IMG/VR virus record: IMGVR_UViG_3300043811_000226
Reading direction: 5' to 3' (one strand)
DNA length: 64,000 nucleotides
Source: a virus
This document shows, in pieces, positions 19,893 through 63,602 of the stretch. Within the stretch, counting starts at the first letter, position 1, and the number at the start of each line of letters is the position of its first letter. Under the pieces are notes generated by a model. It saw only the letters and a program-made list of their open reading frames with translations. It searched no databases and was not told the origin of the DNA. Both the position numbers and the translations under genes were made by a program.

Positions 19893-20492
19893 TTACCCGA
19901 GTGGTGTTCCAACCTGGGGTTGCCCGTATTGGTTCACCCCGAACGGCAGCTGGTAGCCGACACCACGAACCGGATGTCCCATGCCATAGACAGGGGTCGT
20001 CGGTTCTTTTGCCATGGCGCGTGTCCCAGCGTGCATTGCCTTGCTCGCTAGGATACCAGTAGCCAGGGTACCTCCGGCAAGAGCCAGGTTCGTTTTCACG
20101 CCGAGCCCTCCGCCGAGCCACTTCTTTCCCTGCGCGAGAAGGTTGCCCGCAGCAGGTACTGCCCCAGTTCCGATGCCACCCATCTTCGCCAGATCGGCGC
20201 CGGCATCGGCGGCAATAGAAGCAAGACGTACCATCGCCTGGTCAGGGATGGGTGTGTAGCGAAGAGCTTCTTCTGCCTGTTGAAGCTTGGCGAGTTCGTA
20301 CTCCCGTAGTGCTTCCTGCTGGAGGGCTTGTTCTTCCCGCGCCTTCTGGTCCCCCTTCTGGTTGCTGTGCGCGAGTTCGGCGTTGGCAAGCCCCGCCATC
20401 AAGCTAGCGAGCAGCGGAACTCCAGCCGTCTTCGCCAGGAAGACGTCCTCGGTTCCGTAGCGCTGCATGAGGGCGGGGTTCGGAGTGTTCAT
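19893..20492 (-). CDS. Putative internal virion protein with Gly-rich hydrophobic segment (199 aa)
   Basis: KTAG motif; GGGLGVKTNLALAGGTLATGIL. Confidence 0.65.
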   Translation of the reverse strand: MNTPNPALMQRYGTEDVFLAKTAGVPLLASLMAGLANAELAHSNQKGDQKAREEQALQQEALREYELAKLQQAEEALRYTPIPDQAMVRLASIAADAGADLAKMGGIGTGAVPAAGNLLAQGKKWLGGGLGVKTNLALAGGTLATGILASKAMHAGTRAMAKEPTTPVYGMGHPVRGVGYQLPFGVNQYGQPQVGTPLG

Positions 20493-20719
20493 CGCGGATG
20501 AGGCGGAGGCAAGGTCCGGCGGACCAGCGACGTGACGTCGGAGACCTTCTGCGTCGTTGCAGCTTGTACCCGACGGAGTGACTCCATGGCTTCTTGTAGC
20601 TCTGGGTCTACACCGGGGCTGGTCTTCTCCTCCTCCGTCTCTTCCTCCTCATCGTCTTCTACAGGCGGTTTCGGAGCACTCCCTCGAGCTGTCCCATGCT
20701 TCTTTCGATGGCTCTCCAT
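20489..20719 (-). CDS. Small acidic hypothetical protein (76 aa)
   Basis: AGGAGG upstream; EDDEEEETEEE. Confidence 0.6.
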   Translation of the reverse strand: MESHRKKHGTARGSAPKPPVEDDEEEETEEEKTSPGVDPELQEAMESLRRVQAATTQKVSDVTSLVRRTLPPPHPR

Positions 20720-21105: not shown

Positions 21106-21141
21106 GGGGCCTCCTCGCCGTCGGGAGCACCCGAGGCGGCC

Positions 21142-21531: not shown

Positions 21532-21553
21532 CGACTACTCCGTGGGGGTGGGA

Positions 21554-22312: not shown

Positions 22313-22316
22313 GGTC

Positions 22317-33391: not shown

Positions 33392-34516
33392 TTAGAACTG
33401 CGTGACGTTCGGGAACTTGAGACCGGCGTCGACTTTGTTATTCGGCGTGCCGAGCGAGTCCTCGGACACCGGCACGAAGTTCGTGAGCAGGCTGTCGGCG
33501 TTCGTGGTCGGGTTCGCGTCCGCCGAGTACAGCTCGAGCTTGCGCACCGAGGCGATGTTGATGACCGCCATCGCGATGTCCTCCCAGGCCTGGAAGGTGA
33601 TGATGTTCGCGATCTTGTCGATGTAGAACTTCGTGTTGTTCAGGACGTAGAACTTCCCGAAGAACTCCGGCTTCGTGAAGACGTACACGTTGCCGGGACG
33701 CAGGATGTCCGTCTTGACGGTACGGATGTACGCACGCCCGAAGAGGGTGTTGTACTTGTACCCGTCGACCGCCGTCTCCGACTGGAGACGGTCGCCGAAG
33801 TCCTCGAGCGTCCACTGGAGGATGTCGTCCCAGTCGACCTCCGTCATCAGCAGGCGTTCGCTGCGCAGGCGGTTGCCGTCGAGCAGCTTGAAGAGGTTGA
33901 TGACGTCGGGCCGCTGGACGGGGCGGACCGTCGCATCGTTGGTGCTGGCCGCACGCGCGAGCTCGCCCTTGCGGATCGAGAACTCGACGACGCCGGGTCC
34001 TTGGATCTGCGAGGTGTTGAGCGGGGTCGCGACGCCGCCATTCGCCTGCAGCTGCAGGGCCTGAACCGAGGCCTCGATGTTCACCGTGAACTCGCGGTCC
34101 TCGACCTCCTGGATGTCCTTCACCGAGTTCTCCTCGATGATCTTGGTGATGGGCATCTCGTAGGCGAGAAGCTCCTGCTCCGTCTTCTGGAAGATCTCCG
34201 AGCTGACGGTGTAGAAGCCGACCTCTGCCTTCGAGCCGCGGATGAACCGCGCCGTCGGGCTGCCTCGGAAGGTCATGGTGAGCGCGCGGGACTGCGGCTC
34301 GACGTCCACGATCTTCACGAGTGTGTCGTGGTTGACCGACCGCTGGCAGTCACTGCGCGTGACTTGCTCCGGCGGGATCACCTTTCGGGCGTAGGAGACC
34401 TCGCGCAGTCGGTCGCGGATGTACGAGCCACCGTACTCCGCCATCTTCTCTTTGCCCTCGGACGAACCGAGCTTCTGCGTGAAAAGCTCGTTGAGTACCC
34501 TTGCCGGAACGCTCAT
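33392..34516 (-). CDS. Major capsid protein (374 aa, HK97-like fold inferred)
   Basis: Position after protease, scaffold-like and decoration genes. IRDRLREVSYARKVIPP, EIFQKTEQELLAY, KDIQEVEDREF, YIRTVKTDIL, AWEDIAMAVINIASV. Strong SD GAGAGGAG. Confidence 0.8.
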   Translation of the reverse strand: MSVPARVLNELFTQKLGSSEGKEKMAEYGGSYIRDRLREVSYARKVIPPEQVTRSDCQRSVNHDTLVKIVDVEPQSRALTMTFRGSPTARFIRGSKAEVGFYTVSSEIFQKTEQELLAYEMPITKIIEENSVKDIQEVEDREFTVNIEASVQALQLQANGGVATPLNTSQIQGPGVVEFSIRKGELARAASTNDATVRPVQRPDVINLFKLLDGNRLRSERLLMTEVDWDDILQWTLEDFGDRLQSETAVDGYKYNTLFGRAYIRTVKTDILRPGNVYVFTKPEFFGKFYVLNNTKFYIDKIANIITFQAWEDIAMAVINIASVRKLELYSADANPTTNADSLLTNFVPVSEDSLGTPNNKVDAGLKFPNVTQF

Positions 34517-34547
34517 GGTCTTCTCCTCTCTTTTCCTGTCGTTCCGG

Positions 34548-35137: not shown

Positions 35138-35509
35138 TCAGCCCACGCCCCCGACGATGAACCGCTCGAGATCCGACGATGTGGCGGGAGACGAACCCGA
35201 CTCGGCGTCGTTCGTGAGTGATGCGAGCTTCTGCCCCATGTCGGGGCCTACGAGGTCGACGGCCTGTTCGACGGCGTCGAGCTTGCCCGCCTCGGCCGCC
35301 TTCTCCAGACGGGTGGCCAGGTCGTCGACGCTCGTGTCGAGCTCGAGGCCCTTGCGGTGCATCTCGCTCGCGAGCTTCTCGACCCGGTCACGTCGGTCTT
35401 TCGAAGCGAGCTTCTCTTCGAGCTCGCCGATGTACGCGCCCTGCGCTCGGAGCGCAGCGGAGGCATCGGTCAGAACCTCCGCAATCTGAGCGTGGCTGAT
35501 CTTATCCAT
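35138..35509 (-). CDS. Small coiled-coil scaffold-like protein (123 aa) with repeated KLAS
   Basis: EEKLASK, VEKLASE, LEKAAE, GQKLASL; AAGGAG upstream. Confidence 0.7.
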   Translation of the reverse strand: MDKISHAQIAEVLTDASAALRAQGAYIGELEEKLASKDRRDRVEKLASEMHRKGLELDTSVDDLATRLEKAAEAGKLDAVEQAVDLVGPDMGQKLASLTNDAESGSSPATSSDLERFIVGGVG

Positions 35510-35519
35510 GTGCTCTCCT

Positions 35520-36932
35520 TCACACTCTACCAGGCGCTGCCGCACGGGTGGAAGTACCCGGAGCCTGCTTCTCGTCGATGGATGCTGCGAGCTTGGTGAG
35601 AAGAACGCGCGCGGCGGCGGTCTTCACACTGGCCGCGGCGGGAGTGACGATGACCTTCTCCTCGGGAGCGGAGGCGATCTTCGGTCCGGCCTTGCCTGTG
35701 TTCTCGAAGGCGACCTGCAAGACGTTGTCGTGTTCGGCACTGAGCGCAGGCTCCTGGAAGTACTGACGCAGGTCGTTCTTCCGGTTCGCGTAGGCCGTGC
35801 CCTTGGTGTAGTCGCGCGCGGCCTCGGACGATGCAACGAGTCCAGTCGGTCCCTGCGGTGCACCGCCGGCGGGAGCGCCTCCCGACTCGCCCGCTGCGGA
35901 CGTGTCCGGGGGAACCGCGGCGCCCGCGGAGATCTGCGCCGGGTTGATGGCGTCCTCTGCCTGCTTGACCCGCGTGAGCATGTGGTCGACGAGCGATACG
36001 GGCGCGGCGCCCGCCTCCTTGCCCTTGTTCTCGGGCTCACTCTTGTGCGCGGCCTCAGCGGTCTCGAGGCCCTTCTTGGCCTCCTCGAGTCCCTGGGTCT
36101 CCTTCTTCTCGTGCTCGTCGGACGCGATCTTGGCGCGGATGAGCGAGACGACGTTCGCGTGCTTCTTGCCGTAGTTGGTCTCGATCATCTTGCCAGCGAC
36201 GGGGTGCGCCTGGTTGTTCTCCATCTGCGTGCCGCCGTGCTCGGACTTCATGGCCTTCTGCTCACCAGGGTGCATCGGCACGGTGTGCACACCCTGACCC
36301 TTGTGATCGGGCAGAGGCTTGGATGCCGTCGCCTGCGACACGCCAGAAGGGCTCGTCTGCAGGTGCTCGGTCAAGTTGTGGGGGCCGGCGAGGCTCGCGC
36401 CCTCCTTCAACAGGACCTCGGCGCAGAAGTCGAGCGCACTGGCGAGCTTCTCGACATCGAAGCCACCGAGCTTCACGCCCGACGACGAGGCCGTCTTCTT
36501 TTTGCAAGTCCCATCGTGCTTGTCCATGCCGCACGAAGCGCACTTCTCCTCGGCGGTCTTCTCCTGTTGAATGCGGGCCTCCTCCGAGACGCGCACGCGG
36601 TCACCCGAGGCGACCATCGCCTGCTTCACCAGGTCTTGCAGCATCGGACGAGCAGCCATCGATCCAGCCATGTTCTCTTCTCCTGCGGACGCCCGCTTCG
36701 GCAACATCTCAGCGCCCCGAGGGGCCATGGACTTCTGTTCGGAGGCGCCCGCGTCCATCTGTGGAGGAGCGCCCGTGTTCACCCGGGAGTAGTTCTGCCG
36801 CGGCGAGACCCCCGCCGGCCCCCGCTTCCCGGGAGCGAAGGTCGGGTCGATGCTGGGGGTCGGAACCGGGGAGGCTGCGGTCGCACCTGTGGAAGACGCC
36901 AGCGTGTCCGCGGCGCTCTTCAGATGGGACAT
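35520..36932 (-). CDS. Scaffold / internal head-like protein (470 aa), low complexity, many K-x-A motifs
   Basis: KSAA, KRAS, KTAS, KLAS, KIAS (x2), KQAE, KTAA, KLAA; GGGAGG upstream. Confidence 0.7.
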   Translation of the reverse strand: MSHLKSAADTLASSTGATAASPVPTPSIDPTFAPGKRGPAGVSPRQNYSRVNTGAPPQMDAGASEQKSMAPRGAEMLPKRASAGEENMAGSMAARPMLQDLVKQAMVASGDRVRVSEEARIQQEKTAEEKCASCGMDKHDGTCKKKTASSSGVKLGGFDVEKLASALDFCAEVLLKEGASLAGPHNLTEHLQTSPSGVSQATASKPLPDHKGQGVHTVPMHPGEQKAMKSEHGGTQMENNQAHPVAGKMIETNYGKKHANVVSLIRAKIASDEHEKKETQGLEEAKKGLETAEAAHKSEPENKGKEAGAAPVSLVDHMLTRVKQAEDAINPAQISAGAAVPPDTSAAGESGGAPAGGAPQGPTGLVASSEAARDYTKGTAYANRKNDLRQYFQEPALSAEHDNVLQVAFENTGKAGPKIASAPEEKVIVTPAAASVKTAAARVLLTKLAASIDEKQAPGTSTRAAAPGRV

Positions 36933-36968
36933 GACCGAAACCTCCCACGATTCTTCACCGTTCCTTGG

Positions 36969-37718
36969 TTACTTCCACTCGACGGGGTAGCCCGCCGCTT
37001 CGAGCAGCTCGAGTGCTCGCAGACCGACAGCTGCGTCGACGTTGGGCGCCGAGGCGACCTTGCTCTTGCTGTCGGGAGCGAGGCCGAGGGTGACGACGGC
37101 AGCGACCTTGCGGCCGGCGAGGTCCGCATCGAAGCCGCCGTCGGCCGCGAGCTTCTTCGCCTGCTCGATGGCCATCTGATCGAGGGCCGAAGCCGCGGCC
37201 TCCTTCTTCTCCTCTTTCTTCTCTTCCTTCTTCTCCTCGGGCTTGCCCTCTTCCTTGCCCTTCATGTGGGCCTTGAAGGCCTCGGGGATCTCGGCCACCT
37301 TCGGCGTGCCGGCGGCGGCTGCCGCAGCAGCTCCCGGAGTGGCCGCGTCGGCCGCGATCTTGCGCAGCTCCTGGACGTAGGCGTGGGCCATGGTGCGCCC
37401 GAGGAAGTCTGCCTCCGCGACCTTCTCGGCAGCGGCCTTCTTCTCCTCGTGCTCCTTCTCGGCCTTCTCGCGCTTCTCCTTCTCCTCGTCCTTCTTCTCT
37501 TCGTGCTTGGGAGGAGGGAACTCGGCCGACTTCTGGACCCAGTTGTCGTAGAGCGCCTGGACCTGCTCGTCGGGCATCGACTTGAGGTCGATCTTCTGCT
37601 CGCTCGCGAGCTTGAAGAAGAGCTCCACAGAGGCCTGCTTCTCGAGGTCCTCGGCGGGGGCCGACGCGGTCTTGTTGGTGCCGTAGTGCTCGGCGAGGAA
37701 TGCGTCCATGGTGGTCAT
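36969..37718 (-). CDS. Capsid scaffolding-like protein (249 aa)
   Basis: Directly after the prohead protease; E/K-rich helical; about 12 K-x-A motifs. Confidence 0.7.
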   Translation of the reverse strand: MTTMDAFLAEHYGTNKTASAPAEDLEKQASVELFFKLASEQKIDLKSMPDEQVQALYDNWVQKSAEFPPPKHEEKKDEEKEKREKAEKEHEEKKAAAEKVAEADFLGRTMAHAYVQELRKIAADAATPGAAAAAAAGTPKVAEIPEAFKAHMKGKEEGKPEEKKEEKKEEKKEAAASALDQMAIEQAKKLAADGGFDADLAGRKVAAVVTLGLAPDSKSKVASAPNVDAAVGLRALELLEAAGYPVEWK

Positions 37719-37721
37719 GAT

Positions 37722-39482
37722 TCAGTGTCCTCCAGCAATCTTGCTGCGCATGGCCTGCGTGTTCCTCGAGGGGAATCCCCTCTCCACGACGGCGTGTTGT
37801 GTCTCTTCTCCCACTTCATCCCAGAAGGCGAGCTTCAAGTAGCCCGCCGACAGAGGGGTGAAGAGGCTGTCCACCTCTGCGGCTGCGAGCTTGTGCAAAC
37901 GCTCATCGGACGGCAGCGCCGTCGAAGCGATGAGTGACTGAGCGTGAGCAACAAGTTCCATGATGCCGGTTCGGTACGCGTTGTACGCAGACCCTATCTT
38001 ACGCAAGAGTGGAGAATAAAGGGAAGAAGCGGACGAGCGCTTTTCTTTGAGGGGCTCGGAGGCAACCAGTACCCTCTTCTCGACAGCCGGTCCTAGTGCT
38101 GACCGAGACGACAACAAAGACATCAGGAGTCGCGCCAGAACGGGAGAGAAGAACTCTTCTCCCATGGGTACGGGCAGAGCCTCATCGCTCTTTGGAAAGA
38201 CGGTGCCTTCACGTTCCAGCTTGTCGGCGAGAGGACGCTGTCCCATCTGAATGAGGATGATGCGCTGAAATTCCCGAGGCCTCAGCACCATCCCGAGCCC
38301 TGATGGCGTGGAGAGGGCGCTCTCCAGAGAAGAAGCGCCTAGCGCATCGAGCACTTCCTTGGGCAGGTCCTTCTCATTCTTCGTGAGCACAGGCACCGCC
38401 TTGCCTACGAACTGGCTCGGCATGACGTCCTTCACGATCTCGGCGTCCTTGTCCTTCGCCTGCTTGCCTAGGAAGGCCATCTTGAGTGCGTCGGTCGGTG
38501 CACTGGCTGTCTTGCCAACAACACCCTCCGGAGCGAACTCCGGCAGAAGAAGCTCGTCTCCATCGGAATAGCCGAGCTTCTCCGCGAGCTCGGCGCCGCT
38601 CAAAAACCAGTAGCTCTGTCCTGCTCCTGCAATCTTCATCATCGTCTTGGCTGTCTTGTCAGCGCCGATGAAGACGAAGCTGATGTCGAAGAAGCTCGGG
38701 TAGTCGTTGTAGACGAAGATCTTCCTGCCGTCGGGCAGGATGCGATTCATTGCGCGCTTGGCGTGGTCGCAGTAGTCGTTGCGCGTGATGGACACGCCAC
38801 GGATGCCCTTGCCGTTCTTCTGGATGAGGGCCTTGTGGTAGCGCAGCACGGCGTCACCAGGTGCCTTGTCTCGTCCAGGAGAGAACATGGACTGCGCTTT
38901 TCGATACGTGTCCCAGTCCAAGCAGATGCTGCACGTGTCGAAGGGCACCTTGCAGCCCATCGATACATCCGGGTACTCACCTGCCTGGAGCTTGTCCCAG
39001 ACGCCAGTGCCTCCAAACTTCTGGCAGCGCTCGGAGTCGACGCGCGCTACGAGTTCGACGCGCTTCATTCGCGGGTTCCACGCGGCGAGCTCCACCTCAC
39101 CAAAGGCGCGAGAGGCGTCCTTGTTCCGATGGTGCGCGTACGGGTGAGCGGAGTAGAACGTCGGGAACCCGTACGGCCAAGTCTTCGCTCGGATCTTGTC
39201 GATGAGCGGATTGCCGGTCCACTCGTCGGGACGGTGAATGAGCGCGGTCTCCGGGAAGTAGTCGCCGTTGATGTTCGAGCCCCAGTACTCGCCCGCGCCC
39301 ATGGCGTTGAGCAGCACGTACTGCGCATCCTTCTGCGGCTTGAGCGTATCGATGTACCGGACCACTTCCGGTAGCAAGTAAGGCGCGGCCGTCTTCTCGA
39401 AGACGGGGGCAGAAGGACCGAACAGCGGGATGGCGTTGTGCCCGTCTTCGTCCTCGCCCTGGAAGAAGGCAACCTTGAGCAT
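37722..39482 (-). CDS. Prohead (capsid maturation) serine protease, HK97/assemblin-like clan, with long C-terminal extension (586 aa)
   Basis: YAHHRNKD (putative His), GEVELAAW..RVELVARVD, DVSMGC (putative Ser), CSIC...CDH insert, FFDISFV..GAD..A. Confidence 0.8.
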   Translation of the reverse strand: MLKVAFFQGEDEDGHNAIPLFGPSAPVFEKTAAPYLLPEVVRYIDTLKPQKDAQYVLLNAMGAGEYWGSNINGDYFPETALIHRPDEWTGNPLIDKIRAKTWPYGFPTFYSAHPYAHHRNKDASRAFGEVELAAWNPRMKRVELVARVDSERCQKFGGTGVWDKLQAGEYPDVSMGCKVPFDTCSICLDWDTYRKAQSMFSPGRDKAPGDAVLRYHKALIQKNGKGIRGVSITRNDYCDHAKRAMNRILPDGRKIFVYNDYPSFFDISFVFIGADKTAKTMMKIAGAGQSYWFLSGAELAEKLGYSDGDELLLPEFAPEGVVGKTASAPTDALKMAFLGKQAKDKDAEIVKDVMPSQFVGKAVPVLTKNEKDLPKEVLDALGASSLESALSTPSGLGMVLRPREFQRIILIQMGQRPLADKLEREGTVFPKSDEALPVPMGEEFFSPVLARLLMSLLSSRSALGPAVEKRVLVASEPLKEKRSSASSLYSPLLRKIGSAYNAYRTGIMELVAHAQSLIASTALPSDERLHKLAAAEVDSLFTPLSAGYLKLAFWDEVGEETQHAVVERGFPSRNTQAMRSKIAGGH

Positions 39483-39491
39483 GAACGCGCG

Positions 39492-39974
39492 TTACTTCTT
39501 CTTGCCGCCAAGCGCGGCGCGCGTGACCATGTCCCCCATCGGAGAGCGCATCTTGTCGCGAAAGTTCAACGTCTCGACGACCTTGCCACCCGCATGCACG
39601 GGGTCTTCCATCATCTGACGTACGTAGCTACCGGCCACCGTGGGGTCCTTCGAGAACTGCGGGTTGAATGTGCGCAGCGTCGAGAACATCCGGTTTACCA
39701 GCCGAGGGTCCTCCTCGTGCTTGGCTGCAACATCCGGGTTGACCTCGAGCATCGCACGGAAGTCGCGGCTCTTGGTGGCGGCGTCGTAGATCGCCCCGGC
39801 AGCAGCAACTCCGCCCCCAACGGCAAGCGCGCCGGCGGCGCCCATGGCACCACGGCCGAGCGCGGCGCCCATGCGCCCCGGGTTGCTGAGGCCGGAGCCT
39901 GCCATGAGCCCTTGCCCGAACGACGCGGCCGTCTTCGTCTTCAGGTACTCCGTGACGGGATTCTCACTGCCCAC
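39492..39974 (-). CDS. Gly-zipper putative internal head protein (160 aa, GTG start)
   Basis: GAGG before the GTG at 39974; KTAAS then GAALGRGAMGAAGALAVGGGVAAAG. Confidence 0.65.
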   Translation of the reverse strand: MGSENPVTEYLKTKTAASFGQGLMAGSGLSNPGRMGAALGRGAMGAAGALAVGGGVAAAGAIYDAATKSRDFRAMLEVNPDVAAKHEEDPRLVNRMFSTLRTFNPQFSKDPTVAGSYVRQMMEDPVHAGGKVVETLNFRDKMRSPMGDMVTRAALGGKKK

Positions 39975-41208: not shown

Positions 41209-41895
41209 ATGGGAAGACAACCGCCCAGTGACTACGTCGACAAGGTCGAAGCAGCGAAGACGTTGGGCGTGTCCGTACGCACGCTCGACAACATGATCCA
41301 CAAGAACATGATCGTGCCGCACTCCTTTGCCGGCAGCAGGAAGGTCGTGTTTCTACGCTCCGATGTCTCTGCCTTGATGCAGGCCACAGGTGATGGAGGA
41401 CTCGACCTGGCCCAAGTGAAAGCGCTGGCCTTGGCTGCGCTGTCGACCTCCCGTCGCAACGAGCAGCGTATGGTGGAGCTCTATGCGCACCTGGGCATGG
41501 AACTTCTACCCCTCGCGCGTGATACGCATTCGGTGCGTTCGCTCTACGAAGAGGTGAAGCTCGGTGTAGAACCCTCGAGCGTCCACGACGCCGACTGGCT
41601 GCAGTTCTGGACCAACACCTTCTTCTCGATGGACGAGGTCTACCTTGAGCTCGTCACGCATCTGACTGGGGACGTAGAGCCGTGGTTGGTGTTCCACGAC
41701 TTAGCGAACGCCATCTTGCGAGAGCTGGATTCTTACGGACTGACACGCCCTGTGCGCATCTTCCGCGCCAGCCGAAACCACCTACGCCATGTGAGTTACA
41801 TGCACTGCCGCAGAGTGAAGGGGGTAGAAACCGCCGGCATCGTATTCGACGGCCGCGCGCGTGCGGTCGATGAGTTGAACGCCCTCATTGGTTAG
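41209..41895 (+). CDS. DNA-binding protein with N-terminal excisionase/MerR-like winged HTH (228 aa)
   Basis: YVDKVEAAKTLGVSVRTLDNMIHKNMI...KVVFLRSDV. Confidence 0.75.
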   Translation: MGRQPPSDYVDKVEAAKTLGVSVRTLDNMIHKNMIVPHSFAGSRKVVFLRSDVSALMQATGDGGLDLAQVKALALAALSTSRRNEQRMVELYAHLGMELLPLARDTHSVRSLYEEVKLGVEPSSVHDADWLQFWTNTFFSMDEVYLELVTHLTGDVEPWLVFHDLANAILRELDSYGLTRPVRIFRASRNHLRHVSYMHCRRVKGVETAGIVFDGRARAVDELNALIG

Positions 41896-43748
41896 CCCTG
41901 ATCGATGGGACCGCGGTACCCGGTACGAAGCGGACCCTGACCAGGCATCTCCCTGATGGGGCTGATTATATCCGGACGCGGCACGAGGATCATCGAGACC
42001 ATCATGCAGTAGAGGATGGAGTGGAATGTGTCGTCGGGCCGGTCCGGACGGTGCGTGTACTGCAGCATCCTCAGCGCGTTATTGTACTCCGAGAAGATGT
42101 TCAGACAGTCGTTGCCGTAGGGATCCTCGAACTCTTCCCAGCACGGCAAGTCCACCTGCTGGCGCTTGATGGCGTTGAAGATGTCGCTCATCACCTCAGT
42201 GCGCACCATCTGCCAGCGGCGGAAGTTCGGGTTCCAGAAGACCTTCTTCTTTCCGCGCGCCATGTACTGGTACTTGTGTACGCGCTTTGGACCGAACTTC
42301 CGGGTCAGGTGGTCATTGCGATCGAAGCCGCCACCGTAGTCGGCGCCGATGAGGCGCACGTTGAAGTACTGCATCATCTCGTCGATCTTTGCGAGCTGCG
42401 GCTCGGGGTCGACGTCTTCTCCTGTGAAGCGATGCACGTAGAAGATGCGGAAGCGCTGGTGCACGTACGTGCCGAGGGAAAGCACCGTGTACGTATTTTC
42501 GCCTGTGCCCCAATCGATTCCAGCGAAAATAGGCTGCCCTGCACCAAGTGAGTGGTACGCATCGAGCGCGTCCATGTTCATGTGCAAGTCGGGCTTGCAG
42601 CACTCCTTGACCTGGGCGCGTGTCAGCGGACGAAGACCTGAATCGTACGAGACGCCGAGCACCTCGTTGTAGAACTTGGCGCGGTCGTAGCGTCCGTAGT
42701 CGAGCATGATCTCGTCCCACGACCGCCACGGGACCATCAGCTGCGGGATGCGGTAGCACTCGAAGATGCCACCCTCCTGCATCTCGGCCCACTGCGCATC
42801 CTCGTGCATCGGGTTGATGAGCTGACCGCACTTCTCGCAAGACAGACCCCGCCTCTGGATGTTCTTCTCCCCCAGGATGTTCCAGTAGCGACCCGCACCA
42901 TCGGCCGAGCCGCAGCGGTCGCAAGGCACAACCCACTCGCCCATCGTGCTCATGGCTCGCCCGCGAGAAGTCCCGCTACGGTAGAACTCGAGGACGTTGT
43001 CGAGTCCCTTGGGCGTACCGGCGTAGAGGAAGCGGCGCCACTGCTCAGGAGCGTGGCTGAGTGATTGCTCGATGACGGGGATGTTGTCCGAGAGCACGTC
43101 CTGCAACTCATCGACGGCCAGGCACCAGGCAGGAATGCCTCGGGTACGGTCGGCGTTCAGGAAGGCGTAGCGCATCGTAATCTTCGAGCGGTTGACGAAC
43201 TGCTTCTCGAAGACGTTCTGCTGAAGGAGGGTGGTCGTGTAGGCCTTGAGGATGTCGCTAGTCTCGAGCGGTTCCTTGATGCGGTCGACTGAGAAGGTCT
43301 TGGTCTGTGTGGCTGACGGCGACACGTAAAGCGTACGGAAGCCCTGCACCATGCACGAGTAAGTAATGATGCGGTTGCCGAGCAGCGTGGACTTCTCAAC
43401 CTGCCGTCCGCAGAAGAGGAGGACGCGCTTGGCTGGCGTGTCGTAGACCCGGCGCATGTGCCGGCGACCTTCGAAGGTAAAGTTCTCGTAGCCCATGCCG
43501 TCGACACGCGGCATGCGGAAGGCGAACTCAGTGAACTGTGAGGGGAGCACCGCCGGGATGACGGCAGGAGCCTTGCGATCGTCATCCAGAAACGTGAAGT
43601 CGTCGAAGAGGTCTGGCTCTGGGCACCAAGGCTGGCCGTTCTCCGCGTTGTAGAGTTCCTCGTCGGATAGCTCCTCCTCGAGTGCTTCGAGATCGAGCTC
43701 GAAAGACTTCGGCACATGATTGTGCCCGTGGTAGTTGGTACCCAACAT
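41892..43748 (-). CDS. terL: Terminase large subunit (618 aa; start uncertain)
   Basis: LLFCGRQVEKST Walker A variant, TLYVSPS, LAVDELQD Walker B, YAGTPK, Cys4 insert, IFAGIDWG and PDDTFHS nuclease motifs. Confidence 0.9.
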   Translation of the reverse strand: MLGTNYHGHNHVPKSFELDLEALEEELSDEELYNAENGQPWCPEPDLFDDFTFLDDDRKAPAVIPAVLPSQFTEFAFRMPRVDGMGYENFTFEGRRHMRRVYDTPAKRVLLFCGRQVEKSTLLGNRIITYSCMVQGFRTLYVSPSATQTKTFSVDRIKEPLETSDILKAYTTTLLQQNVFEKQFVNRSKITMRYAFLNADRTRGIPAWCLAVDELQDVLSDNIPVIEQSLSHAPEQWRRFLYAGTPKGLDNVLEFYRSGTSRGRAMSTMGEWVVPCDRCGSADGAGRYWNILGEKNIQRRGLSCEKCGQLINPMHEDAQWAEMQEGGIFECYRIPQLMVPWRSWDEIMLDYGRYDRAKFYNEVLGVSYDSGLRPLTRAQVKECCKPDLHMNMDALDAYHSLGAGQPIFAGIDWGTGENTYTVLSLGTYVHQRFRIFYVHRFTGEDVDPEPQLAKIDEMMQYFNVRLIGADYGGGFDRNDHLTRKFGPKRVHKYQYMARGKKKVFWNPNFRRWQMVRTEVMSDIFNAIKRQQVDLPCWEEFEDPYGNDCLNIFSEYNNALRMLQYTHRPDRPDDTFHSILYCMMVSMILVPRPDIISPIREMPGQGPLRTGYRGPIDQG

Positions 43749-45352: not shown

Positions 45353-47572
45353 TCACGACTTCTGAAAAGCGAGAATTTTCAAACCTTCGAGCACCTCCTC
45401 GGTGCATCGAATGGCGCGCTCGAGGGCAGGGATGGGGGTCTCCCGGAGACCGAGACGCGCCGCGAGAAGTAGCTCGCACATCTTGAGCTGCGCTTCGTCG
45501 ATGACGGGCATGTACGCGATGAAGGCGCCGAGGTTCTCAGGATTCAGGAACCCAAGAGACAACACCGTGTCGACAGCAACCGGGTCGGGGATGACGGCCG
45601 CTTCCTTGACCAAGTCCTGCTTGAGGTCAGGCATGGTCGAGAGCACTTGCGCGGCCTTCTCGAGCGCCTCGTTCAGCTGGTCGGTGGCGAGCTTGATGTA
45701 CCGTCCAACGCGCACGTCGACGGGAGTGCTCCACGCGGCGGCCTCCCCCAGCTTCTTCTGTGCGTAGCCGAGGTCGGTACCGAGACCGCCGAGAAGAAAC
45801 AGCGTGTCGTCGAGCGACAAGAAGCTCTTCTCGTCGTGCGCGAGCTTGTCGACAGGGAAGCCTCTGAGAGAGAACGTGCTATCCCCTCCACAGCGCACCT
45901 GCACCGTGTGCAGCGCGCGGGCGACAGCGGCCTCTTTGTTGAAGCCCTGCGGGTCGCCGACGAGCTCCGTTTCCTCGGCCTTGTCGAGGGGGAGCCAGCA
46001 GAACGAGTCCGGGACGATGAGCATCGACCCATCCGGCGTCGGAGTGACCGCCTCGAGGTTCGGCTGGACGCTGACCTGGATGGGTCGCCCGTCGAACGTC
46101 TCGGCATGGAAGACGACCCCGCCGGCGCCGTCCGCGCCTTCCTCGGGAGCATCCATCGAGGCCTTGAGCGTCATGGGGACGGTCGCCTCAGCACGTCCGT
46201 TCGAGAGCAGGTGGTAGAAGACTCCCATTCCCGACGGCTTGCCTTCGAACAGGCTCGCCCCTCCGCCCACATTGATGCCGGCGATGTCGCCTTGAAGCGC
46301 CATCTGGCTGCCGTTGGTGAAGAGGGCGATGGGCAGTGCCGTCCCATCGATGTCGATGAGGTTCGGGAAGACGTAGCCGATGAGGTGACATCCCTGACTG
46401 TCCTGCACCTTGTAGATGCCGAACTGGCTGACGAGCTCCGCCTTGTCCGCTTCGGGGCTCTCCTTCTCCGCCACGCCCTCCCCTACCGTCAGCGTGGCCG
46501 AGCCGGTCGTATCGGCCGCGAGGACGACCTTCTCCCCGAGAAGGCGAACGGCCTGCCCGCGGTCGAGGGTCTGCTCTTCTGGCAGCCAGCAACCAAACGA
46601 CGCCGTCTTGAGCGAGTAGCCCTCGTCTTCTTTGCGAAGCTGCGCCACCGTCGGCTTGAGCTGGATGAGCGCCGCGGCGGCGAGCTTGCGCGACTCGACG
46701 GGCGTGAACTCCGACAGCACCTTCAGGGAATCACGCGTAGCCGCGCCGTTGGCGAGGTACTGCGCCTGCAGCCCATGGTCGTCGGCGAGCTTCTGAAAGA
46801 AGGCCTCGTAGTCGCGCGCATTGATGGTCGGCAGGATGCTCTCGAGGATGGAGGCTGCCTTGGTCGCGCGCTGCGCTGCAATGTTGCCAGCGAGCAGGTA
46901 CTTCTGCCCTTTGGCAGCCTCGCCTCCTGCGACTTGCTGCGCACCACGACCAAGCAGCGAACGCGAAGCGCTAGCCAAGGAGTGCGGGTCAGTCTGCTTC
47001 TTCAGATAGGAACCGAGCGTGGAAGGGGAAAGGGCTTCCTTGTTCTCCCCCTCCTTGCCCATGCCCACGTTCATCGTGGCGCCACCACCACCGAAGCCGT
47101 AGTTCTGGCGGTACGGCGGGTAGAGCTGGCCGATCATCGACATGTCGCCGGGCCCACGGCCCGTGATGTCGAAGACCTGCGGGCGGAAGATAGCCTGGCG
47201 AAGGCGCGGCTCGGTGAGCGGCATGACCTTCGAGTCAGTTGTGACAACGAGGTCGAGTGGCTGGAGCTTGCGGTCCTTGATGATGACCGGAATGCGCGCG
47301 CTGCGAATGCCGGCGGCGTCCATCGCCTCGGGCTCGGCGCCGTGCTGGATCTCCGTCTTGTTCTGGATCTCGACGTGGCCAAACCCATAGCCTCGCTCGG
47401 CGTCGACGCGGTCCATCGTCACGTGCGGCTCGAAATCCGCGGCGTAAGGAACCTGCTTGAACAGCTCCTGCATCAACTCGTTCGGCCACGCGTTCGCGTC
47501 CTCCGGAAGCATGACCTCTGTGGCCACCTTCTCGAAGTGGACGTCGGGCTCGAAGAACAAAGGCTGGGCCAT
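45353..47572 (-). CDS. Large putative internal head protein (739 aa) with K-x-A motifs
   Basis: KVAT, KAAS, KLAA, KTAS, KEAA (x2), KLAH, KLAT, KAAQ; AGGAG upstream. Confidence 0.75.
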   Translation of the reverse strand: MAQPLFFEPDVHFEKVATEVMLPEDANAWPNELMQELFKQVPYAADFEPHVTMDRVDAERGYGFGHVEIQNKTEIQHGAEPEAMDAAGIRSARIPVIIKDRKLQPLDLVVTTDSKVMPLTEPRLRQAIFRPQVFDITGRGPGDMSMIGQLYPPYRQNYGFGGGGATMNVGMGKEGENKEALSPSTLGSYLKKQTDPHSLASASRSLLGRGAQQVAGGEAAKGQKYLLAGNIAAQRATKAASILESILPTINARDYEAFFQKLADDHGLQAQYLANGAATRDSLKVLSEFTPVESRKLAAAALIQLKPTVAQLRKEDEGYSLKTASFGCWLPEEQTLDRGQAVRLLGEKVVLAADTTGSATLTVGEGVAEKESPEADKAELVSQFGIYKVQDSQGCHLIGYVFPNLIDIDGTALPIALFTNGSQMALQGDIAGINVGGGASLFEGKPSGMGVFYHLLSNGRAEATVPMTLKASMDAPEEGADGAGGVVFHAETFDGRPIQVSVQPNLEAVTPTPDGSMLIVPDSFCWLPLDKAEETELVGDPQGFNKEAAVARALHTVQVRCGGDSTFSLRGFPVDKLAHDEKSFLSLDDTLFLLGGLGTDLGYAQKKLGEAAAWSTPVDVRVGRYIKLATDQLNEALEKAAQVLSTMPDLKQDLVKEAAVIPDPVAVDTVLSLGFLNPENLGAFIAYMPVIDEAQLKMCELLLAARLGLRETPIPALERAIRCTEEVLEGLKILAFQKS

Positions 47573-55899: not shown

Positions 55900-56018
55900 C
55901 GGGTGCGCCCTAAGGGAGGCACGTGCAGCGTACCGCGCAGGCGCAAACGCGTGCAAGGCTGTCGCGCCGAAGGGCATAAGAATTGTGAAGGTGCACGTTC
56001 ACTTCTCGAGGAGAAACG

Positions 56019-60513: not shown

Positions 60514-62580
60514 TCAACCACCAGCGCGGCGCGCGGGCAGCTGTTCTGGCTGAGGGCGCATATCGACGGCGTTGGCGGTGCTCTTGCCACCAGCCTGCGT
60601 TGCAGGAGCTGCGCCCATCGCGGTCAGCATCTGCTCGACGAGGTCGGCAAGGTCGGGACTCTGAAGGCGCAGGTTCTGCAGGGCGATGGTCTTCTGCTTG
60701 TCCGGCATCTGCGCAATCATGTGCGCCTGCGCCTGGGCGAACGACGGGAGGTCGACGTTCAGGCCACTCGAGGGCGTCATCTTCTGGTTGCCCTTCAGCT
60801 GACTCGCGACGTTCGACAGGAAGTCCTGCGGGCCGTTGCTGTTCGCAGGTTGCCCTGCTGGAAGTTGCGGTGCGGGCTGCGCGGTTTCTAGCTGTTGCTG
60901 CTCATCAGGTACCACACCTGCGGCTGCCATCTCACCGCCAGGTACTCCTCCGCCTGCTGCGTCGGGTCCACCGGGTTCGCCTGGCGCGTTCGGCGCACCC
61001 TGCGCTGCCATCATCGCTTCCTGGGCCTTGGCCTGGAACTTCATCATGACGAGCTGCGCTTCGCCCTGGATCTCGGCTATCGCGAGCTGCTGCTTCTTGG
61101 TCGCCTCGAGACGCGCATCGGTCTCGCGGATCATGATCTGGTTCTCCTCATCCTGCGAGAGGTCGCTATCGGCGAGGAGCGTCGTGTCCGAGACCTTGTT
61201 CGACTGGTTCAACTGGAAGAGGTAGGCCTTACGCTGCAGGTCGTCGGCCATCTTGAACGGCTTGAAGCGGATCTGCGCCTCAGGCCACCCGAGATATGCA
61301 GCCACCTGCTTCATCACGAACTTGGCCAGCGCCTTGTGTCTCAGGATGTACCCGAGGAACATGTTCTCCATCATGCGCATGGAGACGTTGGTGCCCGCGT
61401 AGCTCATGCCGCCAAGCAGAAACTCGCGTGGCACGCCCATGCCTGTCATGATCTGCTCGGACCATGCCTGAATTTCGGCCGTGAGGAGAAGCGCGCGCCC
61501 ATCCCCACCAATGGTCTGGTTGCCCATCGGAAGCGGCAGAATGGGGATATAGTTGTTGTCGTAGCGCCAGCGCGCAATCTCGGCGGCGATCTGATCACGC
61601 CAGTCGACGAGGTTGATGGTCGTGTACGGATCCGAGCTCCCGCTGCCTGCCTGCGGGAAGAGCACCCGAAGGGGCACGATGTGCTCTAGCAGGATGGCCT
61701 CCTGCGCCTTCTTCATCACTTGCAGGTAGAACGTGTCCTTGAGCACTGGCAAAAGGAGCGGCGTTCCCCATCCGCGGTCCTGCGTCGCCAGCGTCGGCCG
61801 GCGCATGTGGAAGAAGTTGTCCTTCGAGAAGATGACGCCCTTCTGCTCCTGCATGGCCTGGATGAAGACCTGCGGTACGCCCTCGACCACGTCCTTGCGC
61901 CCGATGACGATGTCATTCCGTACGGTCGAGGGGATGGTGTAGAAGTACGTGTACTCTCCCGAGATGTCGTTGTACGTGATCTCGATGTCCTCCGGGTTCC
62001 ACCGGATGGTTTTGATGCCGCTCGCGTTCTTGTAGTAGAAGTCCTTCGCGAGCGCGTCGCCGACGTACCGGCACTTCGGGCACGTCATGCGGAACTGGAA
62101 GCTCGTGAAGATCCAGTTGGCTCGGATCTTCGCGGCTTCGTCGCGGAAGTCGCAGTTCTTGCAGTAGAGGTACTTCTTGAACGGGAAGCCGAGGCTCACA
62201 CACCCGTTGCCGTACGCGTGGTAGTCGAGACCGCACTCTATCTGAAACGCCCGGTAGCGAAGGTGGTCCTGGAAGTACTCCGTCCACCGTTTCTTCACCT
62301 CAGGGCTCTCGTGGTCGATGATGATGTCGGTGACGGGATACTCCGAGAGCTTGAAGACCGTCGCGTTGATGAGCGGGTTGGTGAGAAAGTAGTACCGGCA
62401 CCACTTGAACAGTTGCTTGACCGTGACGGGCAGGTACGTGTGTGCAACGTCGAAGAAAGGGCTCGGGTAGTTGACCCCTTGCACCGGTGAGCCCTGAATG
62501 CGTCCTCGCGTTGCGGCGAACCGCAGACCGCTCGCCGGCCCGGTCGCAACACCCATTCCGCCGCCGCCGATGAAACTCAT
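60514..62580 (-). CDS. Portal protein (688 aa) with Zn-ribbon insertion and Gln/Pro/Ala-rich tail
   Basis: NPLINATVFKLSEYP, GLDYHAYGN.CVSL, FFHMRR..DRGWGTPLLLPVLKD, Q.IGGDG, IMTGMGVP.EFL.GG.SYA pattern of phage portals. Confidence 0.85.
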   Translation of the reverse strand: MSFIGGGGMGVATGPASGLRFAATRGRIQGSPVQGVNYPSPFFDVAHTYLPVTVKQLFKWCRYYFLTNPLINATVFKLSEYPVTDIIIDHESPEVKKRWTEYFQDHLRYRAFQIECGLDYHAYGNGCVSLGFPFKKYLYCKNCDFRDEAAKIRANWIFTSFQFRMTCPKCRYVGDALAKDFYYKNASGIKTIRWNPEDIEITYNDISGEYTYFYTIPSTVRNDIVIGRKDVVEGVPQVFIQAMQEQKGVIFSKDNFFHMRRPTLATQDRGWGTPLLLPVLKDTFYLQVMKKAQEAILLEHIVPLRVLFPQAGSGSSDPYTTINLVDWRDQIAAEIARWRYDNNYIPILPLPMGNQTIGGDGRALLLTAEIQAWSEQIMTGMGVPREFLLGGMSYAGTNVSMRMMENMFLGYILRHKALAKFVMKQVAAYLGWPEAQIRFKPFKMADDLQRKAYLFQLNQSNKVSDTTLLADSDLSQDEENQIMIRETDARLEATKKQQLAIAEIQGEAQLVMMKFQAKAQEAMMAAQGAPNAPGEPGGPDAAGGGVPGGEMAAAGVVPDEQQQLETAQPAPQLPAGQPANSNGPQDFLSNVASQLKGNQKMTPSSGLNVDLPSFAQAQAHMIAQMPDKQKTIALQNLRLQSPDLADLVEQMLTAMGAAPATQAGGKSTANAVDMRPQPEQLPARRAGG

Positions 62581-63602
62581 CAGATGCCGATCTCCGGCGC
62601 CTGGCCGGCTGCGTTCGGGCTCATGACACGCTCACTGGGCGTGTGCTGCCCTTCCGAAGGCTCGAGGGTGCGCGGTGTCATGCCTGGCGTCGAGAGGTGC
62701 GAGCGAAGCTTGTCCACACCGCGTCCCACGAGTTTCCCTGCCTTGCCGAGTACACCACCCACAATCCCCTGACCTACTACGGGCATCGCACCACCAGCAA
62801 TGCCGCCGACCGCGCGCCCCACTTCTTCCCCTACACGCTCCCCCCTCCCACGTCCCTGGGCATCGACCTCCTGAGGACCAAGAAGCGCCTTGCCTGCAGC
62901 AACCGTGGGAGCGCCGATCATCAGGGCGGAGACTGCTGCGGGTGCATTGGAGATCTGCTCTCTGGCACCTGCCGCCAACACCTTTCCGGCGCCGTGCTCC
63001 TTCACCGACTTCACGTAGCCGGGGATGCTCGTGAGGTTCATGCCAGAACCGACGCCTGTCGCAGCTTCCGAGGCACGCAGGCCCTTCGAGGCCTTCGCCA
63101 CCGCACGCTCGTTCCCACCTGCCAGCGCGCCCTGCAAGTGCTCGCGAGCATCCCACGCACCACCGCGGATACCCTCCAGCTCCTTGGGTGACAACATCCC
63201 AGTCAAGGAGTGAACCTGCCGCTGACCAAAGCGCGCACCGGCGCCGACGGGGCCCCCCATGTTCGTCAGATTCCCTGCAGCCGACGGACGAACGAAGCCG
63301 CTGGCCAGTGCGCCGGCGCCACCTCCAAGAAGCGCCCCTTTCCCCGCACCACGGAGGGCTCCTCCGAGGCCTCCAAGCACCGTGCCGCCTACATCAGCGC
63401 CCTGCTCTTTTGCTTCACGGGCACCGTGCAGAGCTCCCAGACCCGCGCCACCGAGAGCTCCAAGAGTCAACCCGGCACCCCCCAGCGCCCCGAGGCTCTT
63501 CAGGCGAGGCGCGGCCCGTTCAACGAGCGCGTCGAAGCCGGCGGCTTCCTTTCGAAGGCCTTCACGAAACGACTGGAGTACGGGCTCGTCAATGAGAGGC
63601 AT
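62580..63602 (-). CDS. Gly-zipper putative internal virion protein (340 aa)
   Basis: RKEAA then LGALGGAGLTLGALGGAGLGALHG and further GxxxG blocks; TGATG overlap with the portal start. Confidence 0.7.
   Translation of the reverse strand: MPLIDEPVLQSFREGLRKEAAGFDALVERAAPRLKSLGALGGAGLTLGALGGAGLGALHGAREAKEQGADVGGTVLGGLGGALRGAGKGALLGGGAGALASGFVRPSAAGNLTNMGGPVGAGARFGQRQVHSLTGMLSPKELEGIRGGAWDAREHLQGALAGGNERAVAKASKGLRASEAATGVGSGMNLTSIPGYVKSVKEHGAGKVLAAGAREQISNAPAAVSALMIGAPTVAAGKALLGPQEVDAQGRGRGERVGEEVGRAVGGIAGGAMPVVGQGIVGGVLGKAGKLVGRGVDKLRSHLSTPGMTPRTLEPSEGQHTPSERVMSPNAAGQAPEIGI

Follow-up and report, generated by a model that had tools for sequence, protein, structure and literature searches.

In an uncultivated phage with a genome of ~170-kb (contig GC 62%), the pattern K-x-A is probably the cutting signal of a prohead protease, since it is over-represented in a group of head proteins, conserved among relatives, and adjoins a predicted capsid protease of the T4 gp21/herpesvirus type. 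By analogy with known systems, it seems reasonably probable that K-x-A represents a new recognition and cleavage code of this 586-aa protein; no description of a K-x-A cleavage code was found in the literature searched. What was computed here is the fold of the protein, the invariance of its Ser and His and, for the motif, its statistics, its conservation and where it is placed.

Enrichment of K-x-A in head-module proteins

Six products of the window, i.e., the whole 64,000-nucleotide stretch analyzed, carry K-x-A (K.A) above the composition-corrected expectation, which was derived for each protein from 1000 shuffles. They lie at 35138-41163 and 45353-47572 on the minus strand:

35138..35545, minus strand: 135-aa small head-module protein with three (E/Q)KLAS sites
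35520..36932, minus strand: 470-aa head-module protein, fold without assignment, with 15 K-x-A, six of them K-x-A-S
36969..37718, minus strand: 249-aa Ala/Glu/Lys-rich scaffold-like protein with 13 K-x-A
37722..39482, minus strand: 586-aa predicted prohead protease (AF2 model, Foldseek, VIA-align, BFVD)
39964..41163, minus strand: 399-aa all-helical protein of the TerL-protease interval with 10 K-x-A
45353..47572, minus strand: 739-aa protein upstream of TerL with 11 K-x-A

Together these six proteins, a set chosen after the motif had been seen, contain 67 K.A against 25.8 expected (z 8.1), an excess that survives correction for Lys/Ala content, and in an unbiased scan of them K.A ranked first among 1600 residue-pair patterns. 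For the a priori set, namely the TerL-to-MCP interval, the count was about 58 against 22 expected. Individually, the observed and expected numbers were 4 vs 1.0 for the 135-aa protein (K.A[SA] 3 vs 0.23; K.AS 3 vs 0.09), 15 vs 6.2 for the 470-aa protein (K.A[SA] 9 vs 1.5; K.AS 6 vs 0.54), 13 vs 6.8 for the 249-aa protein (K.A[SA] 10 vs 1.65), 14 vs 4.3 for the 586-aa protein (K.A[SA] 4 vs 0.75), 10 vs 2.8 for the 399-aa protein (K.A[SA] 6 vs 0.57) and 11 vs 4.4 for the 739-aa protein (K.A[SA] 5 vs 0.67); the list of motifs drawn up by eye for the 249-aa protein was accurate. The excess is restricted to the spacing K(i)/A(i+2) in the six proteins, with K-A at distances of 1, 3, 4 and 5 at expectation, as are the reversed order A-x-K and the substitution R-x-A. 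Ser is enriched 4.8-fold at the position after the motif Ala. Codon usage at the motif is ordinary, and the motif is therefore not a DNA-level feature.

The sequence-only reading had regarded the motif as pervasive over 19893-63602. The true signal is confined to two stretches, at about 35.1-41.2 and 45.4-47.6 kb, and to a single conserved position in the major capsid protein (MCP); the other proteins of 19-64 kb carry 48 K.A against 48.6 expected. Among the proteins in which it was said to recur, those of 470, 249, 586, 399 and 739 aa are indeed enriched, whereas for seven others an excess beyond chance was not confirmed: no excess was found in the 160-aa family (79 vs 77 expected in 41 orthologues), the 199-aa protein (1 vs 1.6) or the 557/577-aa protein (5 vs 4.7), the 116-, 340- and 73-aa proteins have one K-x-A site or zero, and the 361-aa protein (7 vs 3.5) has a p of 0.04 that is uncorrected for about 60 tests. 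Given that half of the listed proteins lack enrichment, the motif alone is not yet a predictor of the internal-head proteome, as had been proposed. The suggested N-terminal bias exists but is weak, with K-x-A in the first 55 residues of 15 out of 38 proteins vs 9.2 expected. Outside the module, a 275-aa protein (14387-15214) reaches p 0.007 purely from a KKAKKAAAAAA tract.

TerL, portal, RNAP and the MCP body are all at expectation. The negative controls and the MCP site are as follows:

41892..43748, minus strand: large terminase (TerL), negative control (phrog_675, E 1.7e-52)
60514..62580, minus strand: portal protein, 688 aa, negative control (tblastn to Arash gp204, annotated portal protein, 2e-83)
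34436..34453, minus strand: KEKMAE in the MCP, candidate propeptide cleavage site, about 24-26 residues downstream of the Met (34516) that is the likely start

The motif had been described as rare in TerL and portal, in agreement with the counts of 0 vs 1.2 and 3 vs 3.7 expected, respectively. The MCP was identified by phrog_2522 (E 3.5e-9) as well as by Arash gp226. Nearly all of about 50 MCP orthologues carry (E/S/T)-K-(I/V/L/M)-A at the KEKMAE position; the leader is conserved throughout and not at the motif alone.

Conservation and replication in relatives

The same families in about 70 related IMG/VR contigs are enriched in K-x-A 1.8- to 3.9-fold, namely 3.9x for the 135-aa (109 vs 28.0), 3.7x for the 399-aa (464 vs 123.9), 3.4x for the 739-aa (291 vs 85.7), 2.4x for the protease, 2.0x for the 470-aa (87 vs 43.5) and 1.8x for the 249-aa family (238 vs 133.5), with z-scores that are inflated by shared ancestry. 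Control families show no enrichment (TerL 0.74x, 79 vs 106; MCP 1.17x; 182-aa family 1.09x). Across 26 related loci, K.A ranked first in 14 and second or better in 18.

In homologue alignments, a check that the sequence-only reading had proposed, the motif is also conserved. Conservation is 0.49 for motif K vs 0.30 for non-motif K (p 1.5e-4) and 0.48 for motif A vs 0.31 for non-motif A (p 4.5e-5), and the share of Arg among replacements is 0.15 for motif Lys vs 0.19 for other Lys. Homologues at 30-70% identity retain the motif, and at several sites K and A persist amid gap-rich flanks. Sites K162 and K418 of the 470-aa protein are invariant (8/8 homologues), the K57 site of the 135-aa protein has K in 23/25 and A in 24/25, and K29, K195 and K250 of the 399-aa protein are kept in 44-49 of 51. 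In the 739-aa protein the respective values are K 22/27 and A 23/27 for K322, and K 27/27 and A 26/27 for K656, while in the 249-aa protein K27, K36, K120 and K220 have K in 21-27/29 and A in 19-29/29 homologues. The positions of K-x-A sites also shift among orthologues with density maintained, and the residue after Ala varies (S, A, G, H, E, Q; in the MCP E, A or Q). Judging from these alignments, K-x-A is under selection.

The cultured Salmonella phage Arash (53% GC) has its protease, scaffold-like, small-protein and MCP genes arranged in the same order as here. Its gp222 ('structural protein') is the protease orthologue, with 31% identity (E 2e-30 in database tblastn, 2e-35 in local tblastn). 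K-x-A is enriched in gp220, gp222, gp223 and gp225, where it takes the form [L/M/I]-x-K-x-A-[S/A/G], as it does at residue 27 of the MCP gp226 (LVKEAGA). Arash differs from our phage in a stricter hydrophobic residue two before Lys and in encoding RNAP beta and beta' separately. In the Arash paper neither a protease nor processing is annotated, and the coverage values do not resolve termini (PMC10585845). Phage G, a distant relative, shows weak enrichment (28 vs 16.8) and zero K.A in the MCP.

The predicted 586-aa prohead protease

A sequence search of Pfam and PDB with the 586-aa protein returned zero family matches. Its AF2 model (pLDDT 71.8) begins with a leader (1-33) and a catalytic domain (about 34-271), after which a disordered linker (about 272-357) leads to a C-terminal domain made of helices (about 358-559). 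The top three Foldseek matches are T4 gp21 (5jbl), and VIA-align against 5jbl_B gave Z 9.0 (rmsd 2.8, 131 residues), followed by the herpes proteases of VZV, HSV, HCMV, EBV and PrV (Z 4.7-6.2). BFVD matches include phage G gp19, PaBG, phiRSL1 and entries annotated 'prohead protease'. The best reading of the model is that the gene encodes a prohead maturation protease, i.e., a serine protease of the T4 gp21/herpesvirus assemblin fold fused by a linker to a helical C-terminal domain, which agrees with the earlier expectation of such an enzyme among the motif-rich genes. The relevant features are:

39384..39401, minus strand: FEKTAA, leader K-x-A site, residues 28-33, immediately ahead of the folded protease domain
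39129..39131, minus strand: His118, candidate catalytic histidine, invariant in the homologue alignment (alignment numbering H117)
38961..38963, minus strand: Ser174, candidate catalytic serine in DVSMGC, invariant in 27 aligned homologues (alignment numbering S173)
38415..38672, minus strand: disordered protease linker with KTA, KIA, KTAS(AP), KMA, KQA and KDA, pLDDT <50

Ser174 aligns onto T4 gp21 Ser140 by a weak local hhalign match (E 0.34), and the His118-Ser174 spacing is 56 residues vs 55 for H85-S140, the T4 gp21 catalytic residues used in bioRxiv 10.64898/2026.03.04.709575. On this weak match and the spacing, His118 and Ser174 are candidate equivalents of the gp21 pair. Two orthologues carry inteins, inserted 3-10 residues past Ser174.

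The distribution of the motif within the protease family is uneven. Across 63 orthologues, K.A was found 80 times in the leader vs 14.2 from local composition (5.6x) and 240 times in the linker vs 74.5 (3.2x), but 53 times in the catalytic domain vs 64.1 (0.83x). At the FEKTAA site K is present in 62/63, A in 58/63 and E at -1 in 40/63, with gap-rich flanks. This placement, sparing the catalytic domain and crowding the leader and linker, would fit autoprocessing.

Proposed mechanism and alternative explanations

We infer that K-x-A is cut. By analogy, it would be a short recognition signal of the 586-aa protease with Lys at P3 and Ala at P1, the scissile bond presumably following Ala, often in the context of a hydrophobic residue two before Lys, Glu at -1, and Ser, Ala or Gly after Ala. 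Inside the prohead, the protease may trim its own leader and cut its own linker, releasing the catalytic domain from the C-terminal domain; it may also take about 26 residues off the MCP and chop the scaffold-like 249-aa and the 135-, 470-, 399- and 739-aa proteins at many sites. The proposal that head proteins are processed as polyproteins found no support. An i, i+2 periodicity (also i-2 in Arash) belongs to a beta-strand that lies in the groove of a protease, and the P3/P1 codes of T4, phiKZ and herpesviruses follow it; gp21, phiKZ gp175 and the herpes assemblins read i/i+2 determinants plus a small next residue. We count the match of K-x-A to this mode of reading in favor of a cleavage code.

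It is also conceivable, though rather unlikely, that K-x-A stays uncut and is conserved for assembly or interaction, with core and scaffold proteins using it to contact the capsid interior, the C-terminal domain of the protease or each other, or that it serves as a capsid-targeting signal. Five highly conserved sites of the 399-aa protein (K29, K164, K222, K276, K299) lie within confidently predicted helices, the best-conserved, K29, at pLDDT about 97, as such a contact would have it; about 4 of the 10 sites in this model are in loops, disordered segments or helix ends (K124 in a disordered segment, K250 in a loop). Conservation of the 249-aa protein, like that of the MCP leader, also extends around the motif. 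However, from a helical contact one would expect i/i+3 or i/i+4 spacing and tolerance of Arg, whereas the excess is limited to i/i+2 and R.A does not depart from expectation; moreover, K-x-A is most concentrated in leaders and linkers that are disordered and gap-rich, the folded catalytic domain avoids it, and its sites turn over with density preserved. Contact and cleavage roles are compatible, as the capsid-targeting sequences of T4 have a gp21 site at their end.

K-x-A could instead mark substrates of another enzyme, be it a protease of the host or an activity that modifies or cross-links Lys, and the strict preference for Lys over Arg would suit a Lys-modifying enzyme; the results give the motif no physical tie to the 586-aa enzyme. 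Yet the motif co-occurs with the protease family and is distributed inside it as autoprocessing predicts, while no candidate modifying enzyme was found among the head-module genes. Furthermore, K-x-A is kept across differing hosts and GC (Salmonella phage Arash, Vibrio-phage relatives and the 62% GC contig), which argues for a phage-encoded reader and leaves this explanation quite improbable. Hardly credible, finally, is the view that K-x-A has no function and simply follows from low-complexity, Lys/Ala-rich helices in a genome of high GC. The motif proteins are Ala-rich (10-20%), some are Lys-rich too, and the tract of the 275-aa protein illustrates how composition alone can raise the count; nevertheless, at the level of these tools a composition by-product is refuted by the per-protein shuffles, the local-composition expectations and the spacing and reversed-order controls, Arash retains the signal at 53% GC, and motif K and A are better conserved than other K and A.

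Comparison with known maturation proteases

T4 gp21 (MEROPS S77; code (L/I)-x-E) is the best structural match, and its I/LxE specificity was confirmed in bioRxiv 10.64898/2026.03.04.709575. The likeness includes the invariant Ser and His, the head-module location beside scaffold and MCP, and a P3-x-P1-type motif that occurs many times in scaffold/core proteins, once near the MCP N-terminus and also in the protease. On the other hand, the 586-aa protein carries a Cys4 insertion in addition to its long disordered linker and C-terminal helical domain, and its motif consists of Lys and Ala rather than Leu/Ile and Glu, with cleavage being predicted here.

With phiKZ gp175 and SPN3US gp245 ((S/A/G)-x-E) the system would share a large phage of the virion-associated multisubunit RNAP lineage and a 3-residue motif present in multiple copies in the propeptides of many head proteins. 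Ser is favored at P1' by these giant-phage proteases (PMC10052503), as it would be here. Here, however, P1 would be Ala and not Glu, and P3 Lys and not a small residue; the clade is of about 170-200 kb and Arash-like, with predicted rather than MS-mapped substrates.

Herpesvirus assemblin (MEROPS S21; (V/L/I)-x-A|S at the R and M sites) belongs to the same fold class, with structural similarity lower than for T4 gp21. Fusion of protease and scaffold with linker self-cleavage is established for herpesviruses, and the 586-aa protein may likewise place the protease upstream of a scaffold-like C-terminal part that is freed by linker self-cleavage. The herpes-like specificity put forward earlier holds in part: the presumed P1 is always Ala and the strongest enrichment at the next position is that of Ser, but P3 is Lys rather than hydrophobic and the presumed P1' is not limited to Ser. 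If true, the K-x-A code would parallel (L/I)-x-E of T4, (S/A/G)-x-E of phiKZ and (V/L/I)-x-A|S of the herpesviruses.

Organization of the Head Module

The window has a GC content of 62% and its genes lie mostly on the minus strand. No DNA match was found for the 33-45 kb region by megablast against 50,697 phage records, and searches of the head-module proteins with Pfam and PHROGs returned names only for TerL and the major capsid protein (MCP), plus a few unrelated genes. The principal features are the following:

33392-34585 (-), MCP, likely start 34516 (phrog_2522, 3.5e-9)
37722-39482 (-), 586-aa candidate prohead protease
41892-43748 (-), TerL (phrog_675, 1.7e-52)
49456-55977 (-), single-chain RNAP of 2173 aa, beta and beta' in one ORF (Pfam Rpb2 domains 3, 6 and 7 fused to Rpb1 domains 1, 2 and 5)
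60514-62580 (-), portal (2e-83 to Arash gp204)

Along the minus strand the order is TerL, 399-aa protein, 160-aa protein, protease, 249-aa scaffold-like protein, 470-aa protein, 135-aa protein, 182-aa protein and MCP. This order is kept in related loci and in gp218-226 of Arash, a cultured Salmonella phage that is distantly related and carries an orthologous head module. The protease gene thus lies within a head-morphogenesis module, adjoining the scaffold-like gene and sharing the module with the MCP, as is expected of gp21/assemblin-fold proteases. A MerR/excisionase-like HTH gene (41209-41895, +; phrog_66 1.3e-5, phrog_2474 3.6e-5) is wedged on the opposite strand between TerL and the 399-aa gene. 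Arash encodes the RNAP halves separately, as gp206 and gp216, whose products are among the most abundant in virion preparations (PMC10585845).

Enrichment of K-x-A in Six Head-Assembly Proteins

The sequence-only reading had noted K-x-A-[S/A] motifs in many head-region proteins, and its list for the 249-aa protein was correct, with 13 K-x-A (Lys, any residue, Ala; K.A), 10 of which are K-x-A-[S/A]. When about 65 proteins were shuffled individually, six head-assembly products stood out, namely those of 135, 470, 249, 586, 399 and 739 aa. K-x-A-S was observed 3, 6 and 4 times in the 135-, 470- and 249-aa proteins, respectively, against 0.09, 0.54 and 0.24 expected from composition. In the six proteins K.A ranked first when every residue pair at spacings 1-4, 1600 patterns in total, was scanned (67 vs 25.8, z 8.1), while the same scan of all other proteins of the 19-64 kb region gave 48 vs 48.6. 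The signal is register-specific, as no excess was found in the six proteins for K-A at spacings 1, 3, 4 and 5, or for A.K and R.A. Ser is enriched 4.8-fold directly after the motif Ala (20 of 67 sites), a position that can also hold A, G, H, E or Q. Glu is over-represented at the residue preceding the motif Lys, and L/F/Y at the second residue before that Lys. Codon usage at K-x-A was unremarkable, and a DNA-level motif was rejected as an explanation. K-x-A behaves as a motif of two positions (i, i+2) that recurs in scaffold, core and propeptide regions and is rare in the terminase, the portal and tail proteins.

The observation is therefore real, but it concerns a narrower region than had been reported. 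The motif did not exceed chance in the 199-, 160-, 116-, 340- and 557-aa proteins, its enrichment in the 361-aa protein was only marginal, and the proposed N-terminal bias proved modest (15 vs 9.2 proteins of the structural region). A 275-aa protein outside the head module (14387-15214, -) reached p 0.007 for K.A only through a low-complexity basic tract (KKAKKAAAAAAAP...KKTAKKTAG), an example of how single-protein K.A counts can mislead. Four small minus-strand proteins, of 116 aa (26958-27308), 160 aa (39492-39974), 199 aa (19893-20492) and 340 aa (62580-63602), share a common layout in which a brief leader at the N-terminus, bearing a single K-x-A, is followed by a long Gly/Ala-rich hydrophobic "glycine-zipper" stretch, and they may represent a class of membrane-active or ejected proteins.

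Conservation of the Motif in Related Phages

Since the six proteins were chosen after the motif had been seen, their selection was circular and replication was sought in other loci. Using the 586- and 249-aa proteins, we retrieved 76 related IMG/VR loci, on contigs of up to about 198 kb. Among 26 loci tested blind, K.A was the top pair pattern in 14 and among the top two in 18, including some whose 586-aa proteins share no more than about 30% identity with that of the window. With the window excluded, orthologues showed enrichment of 3.9x (135 aa), 3.7x (399 aa), 3.4x (739 aa), 2.4x (586 aa), 2.0x (470 aa) and 1.8x (249 aa), the message being carried by these ratios, as the z-scores are inflated by shared ancestry. 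The control families of TerL (0.74x), MCP (1.17x) and the 182-aa protein (1.09x) were not enriched, and the control patterns A.K and K..A stood at or below expectation.

The motif residues are themselves conserved in homologue alignments. Conservation was 0.49 for motif Lys vs 0.30 for other Lys of the same proteins (p 1.5e-4), and 0.48 for motif Ala vs 0.31 for other Ala (p 4.5e-5). E-K-(V/I/L/T)-A is kept amid gapped flanks at K30 and K324 of the protease, K27 and K220 of the 249-aa protein and K250 of the 399-aa protein, and nearly all MCP orthologues carry one K-x-A about 24-26 residues from the start. Arash, at 53% GC, displays the same pattern in the stricter form [L/M/I]-x-K-x-A-[S/A/G], found in gp220, gp222, gp223, gp225 and at MCP residue 27. 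The pattern is thus conserved across a large phage clade; in the head module of phage G, a distant relative, K.A enrichment was only weak. A 165-aa protein (31867-32364, -) is the best-conserved small protein of the module; it occurs in 53 loci and is 81% identical to its counterpart in L008, one of the related loci. Close to the C-terminus it carries a single conserved K-V-A (orthologues, 36 vs 14), which may have a structural role and not be cleaved.

Fold and Candidate Catalytic Residues of the Protease

The AF2 model of the 586-aa protein (pLDDT 71.8) consists of a disordered leader (residues 1-33, gene numbering here and below), a folded N-terminal domain, a disordered linker (about 272-357) and a helical C-terminal domain. 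Residues about 46-272 of the model matched T4 gp21 (5jbl_B) with Z 9.0 and rmsd 2.8 over 131/164 residues (VIA-align), which put it about 3 Z units ahead of the matches that followed, mostly herpes proteases; the range for herpesvirus proteases against the folded domain was Z 4.7-6.2. The top three Foldseek matches were all T4 gp21. As modelled, the catalytic domain possesses the assemblin/gp21 fold of MEROPS clan SH (S21, S77, S80), and matches to MCE domains (Z about 5) probably reflect a shared beta-barrel arrangement. BFVD matches included phage G gp19 and proteins of PaBG and phiRSL1, with many entries annotated as "prohead protease".

At the level of sequence profiles the family fell outside the S21/S77/S80-type families. 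Pfam, including Peptidase_S77 and Peptidase_S21, gave no match at E <= 1 for any of 27 members, no PHROG matched the 586-aa protein, and no PDB chain matched the family profile at E <= 10. More than 1300 metagenomic homologues are all named "hypothetical protein", and their precomputed Pfam domains are only those of inteins and homing endonucleases, in intein-bearing members. An identical 586-aa protein occurs on a 170,766-bp contig.

Among 27 homologues, the candidate catalytic residues His118 and Ser174 are invariant, as are four Cys, and His240 is nearly so. In herpes enzymes the third catalytic residue is a second His. Alignment of the family with T4 gp21 by hhalign placed Ser174 on S140, in a weak match of 18 columns (E 0.34). 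The four invariant Cys (C177, C184, C187 and C238; 38922-38954 and 38769-38771, -) make up an insertion resembling a Zn ribbon that immediately follows the putative catalytic Ser, and no counterpart was seen in the T4 gp21 sequence used for comparison. Two protease orthologues (L001:4985-7798 and L038:8294-11188, both in related loci) are interrupted by inteins of about 360-390 aa, which follow either ...DVSMG or the next Cys without a gap and so lie 3-10 residues past Ser174, and several metagenomic homologues also carry intein/LAGLIDADG Pfam domains. Inteins lodged at active sites typically take such a position. The His118-Ser174 spacing is 56 residues, compared with 55 between H85 and S140 of gp21, which have been used as its catalytic residues (bioRxiv 10.64898/2026.03.04.709575).

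K-x-A as a Candidate Cleavage Signal

Set against local composition in 63 protease orthologues, the K.A ratio was 0.83x for the catalytic domain; the leader reached 5.6x, the disordered linker 3.2x and the C-terminal domain 2.3x. A motif that spares the catalytic domain and crowds the leader and linker is the pattern predicted by autoprocessing, in which the protease would spare its own fold and cut its own leader and linker. A periodicity of i/i+2 (and i-2) suits a beta-strand bound in the groove of a protease, and the spacing resembles that of the P3-x-P1 codes known from T4, phiKZ/SPN3US and herpesviruses. The SPN3US protease also prefers Ser at P1' (PMC10052503). By analogy, the fixed Ala and the frequent Ser next to it may correspond to the herpes Ala-Ser site; however, the V/L/I that herpes enzymes take at P3 is replaced here by Lys, which only rarely gives way to Arg or hydrophobic residues. 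The Glu at P1 of the T4/phiKZ code is likewise absent, since none of the X-x-E pair patterns is prominent among the six proteins.

Cleavage by the gp21-fold prohead protease is the best-supported explanation of K-x-A, and we consider it on balance probable. To this extent the maturation code proposed from sequence finds support in fold, statistics and conservation, whereas the accompanying ideas that head proteins are processed as polyproteins and that the motif on its own suffices to predict the full internal-head proteome found none. An artefact of composition is highly improbable: misleading counts such as that of the basic tract do arise, but the excess in the six proteins remains after composition correction and is absent from the other proteins of the 19-64 kb region. 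The 399-aa protein is less easily accommodated. Its AF2 model is all-helical, with no informative Foldseek or Atlas match (the 739-aa protein also had no Atlas match), and only about 4 of 10 K-x-A sites fall in a loop, a disordered segment or the end of a helix. The most strongly conserved of the sites is within a confident helix. Such helix-embedded sites and the variable residue after Ala count against a cleavage code. That K-x-A is instead an interaction motif which is not cleaved appears unlikely, given the distribution that autoprocessing predicts within the protease.

Action of a different enzyme on the motif seems more doubtful still. For the protease domain (33-272) paired with the N-terminal 62 residues of the 249-aa protein, complex prediction scored 0.00, giving no answer and being neutral on binding. 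The Arash paper mentions no protease or processing, its "coverage" values are unfit for a cleavage test (one protein has 100% coverage with 2 unique peptides), and its supplement is a feature table that holds no peptides (PMC10585845). Literature searches on a phage protease code K-x-A, Lys-x-Ala or Ala-P1, and on head-protein processing in phage G, PaBG and RSL1, returned nothing relevant.

Implications for Phage Head Maturation

To our knowledge, prohead protease cleavage codes are known only for a few model systems, namely T4, the phiKZ/SPN3US group, HK97-type phages and herpesviruses. Once a code is known, the proteome of the mature virion can be read from sequence, along with propeptides and the proteins that are ejected. 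We regard it as evenly balanced whether, in a large and almost wholly uncultivated clade of phages of about 170-200 kb, with Arash as a cultured though distant member, a gp21-fold protease has exchanged the Glu-P1 specificity of the T4 and phiKZ enzymes for a Lys(P3)-x-Ala(P1) code cut before Ser, Ala or Gly. If true, K-x-A cut before Ser would be the first cleavage code for the Arash-like clade, and its maturation degradome, comprising the MCP propeptide, protease autoprocessing, and the scaffold and core proteins, would become readable from sequence alone. It would also place cutting between Ala and Ser, the signature of herpesvirus assemblin, in a phage lineage, a case that would bear on the evolution of specificity between gp21-type and assemblin enzymes. 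A laboratory Salmonella strain supports the growth of Arash, in which the hypothesis is directly testable. Furthermore, CBASS sensors are set off by T4 gp21 through cleavage of a loop bearing I/LxE (2026 preprint, 10.64898/2026.03.04.709575), and the code of this clade would thus predict the host sensor loops able to detect it.
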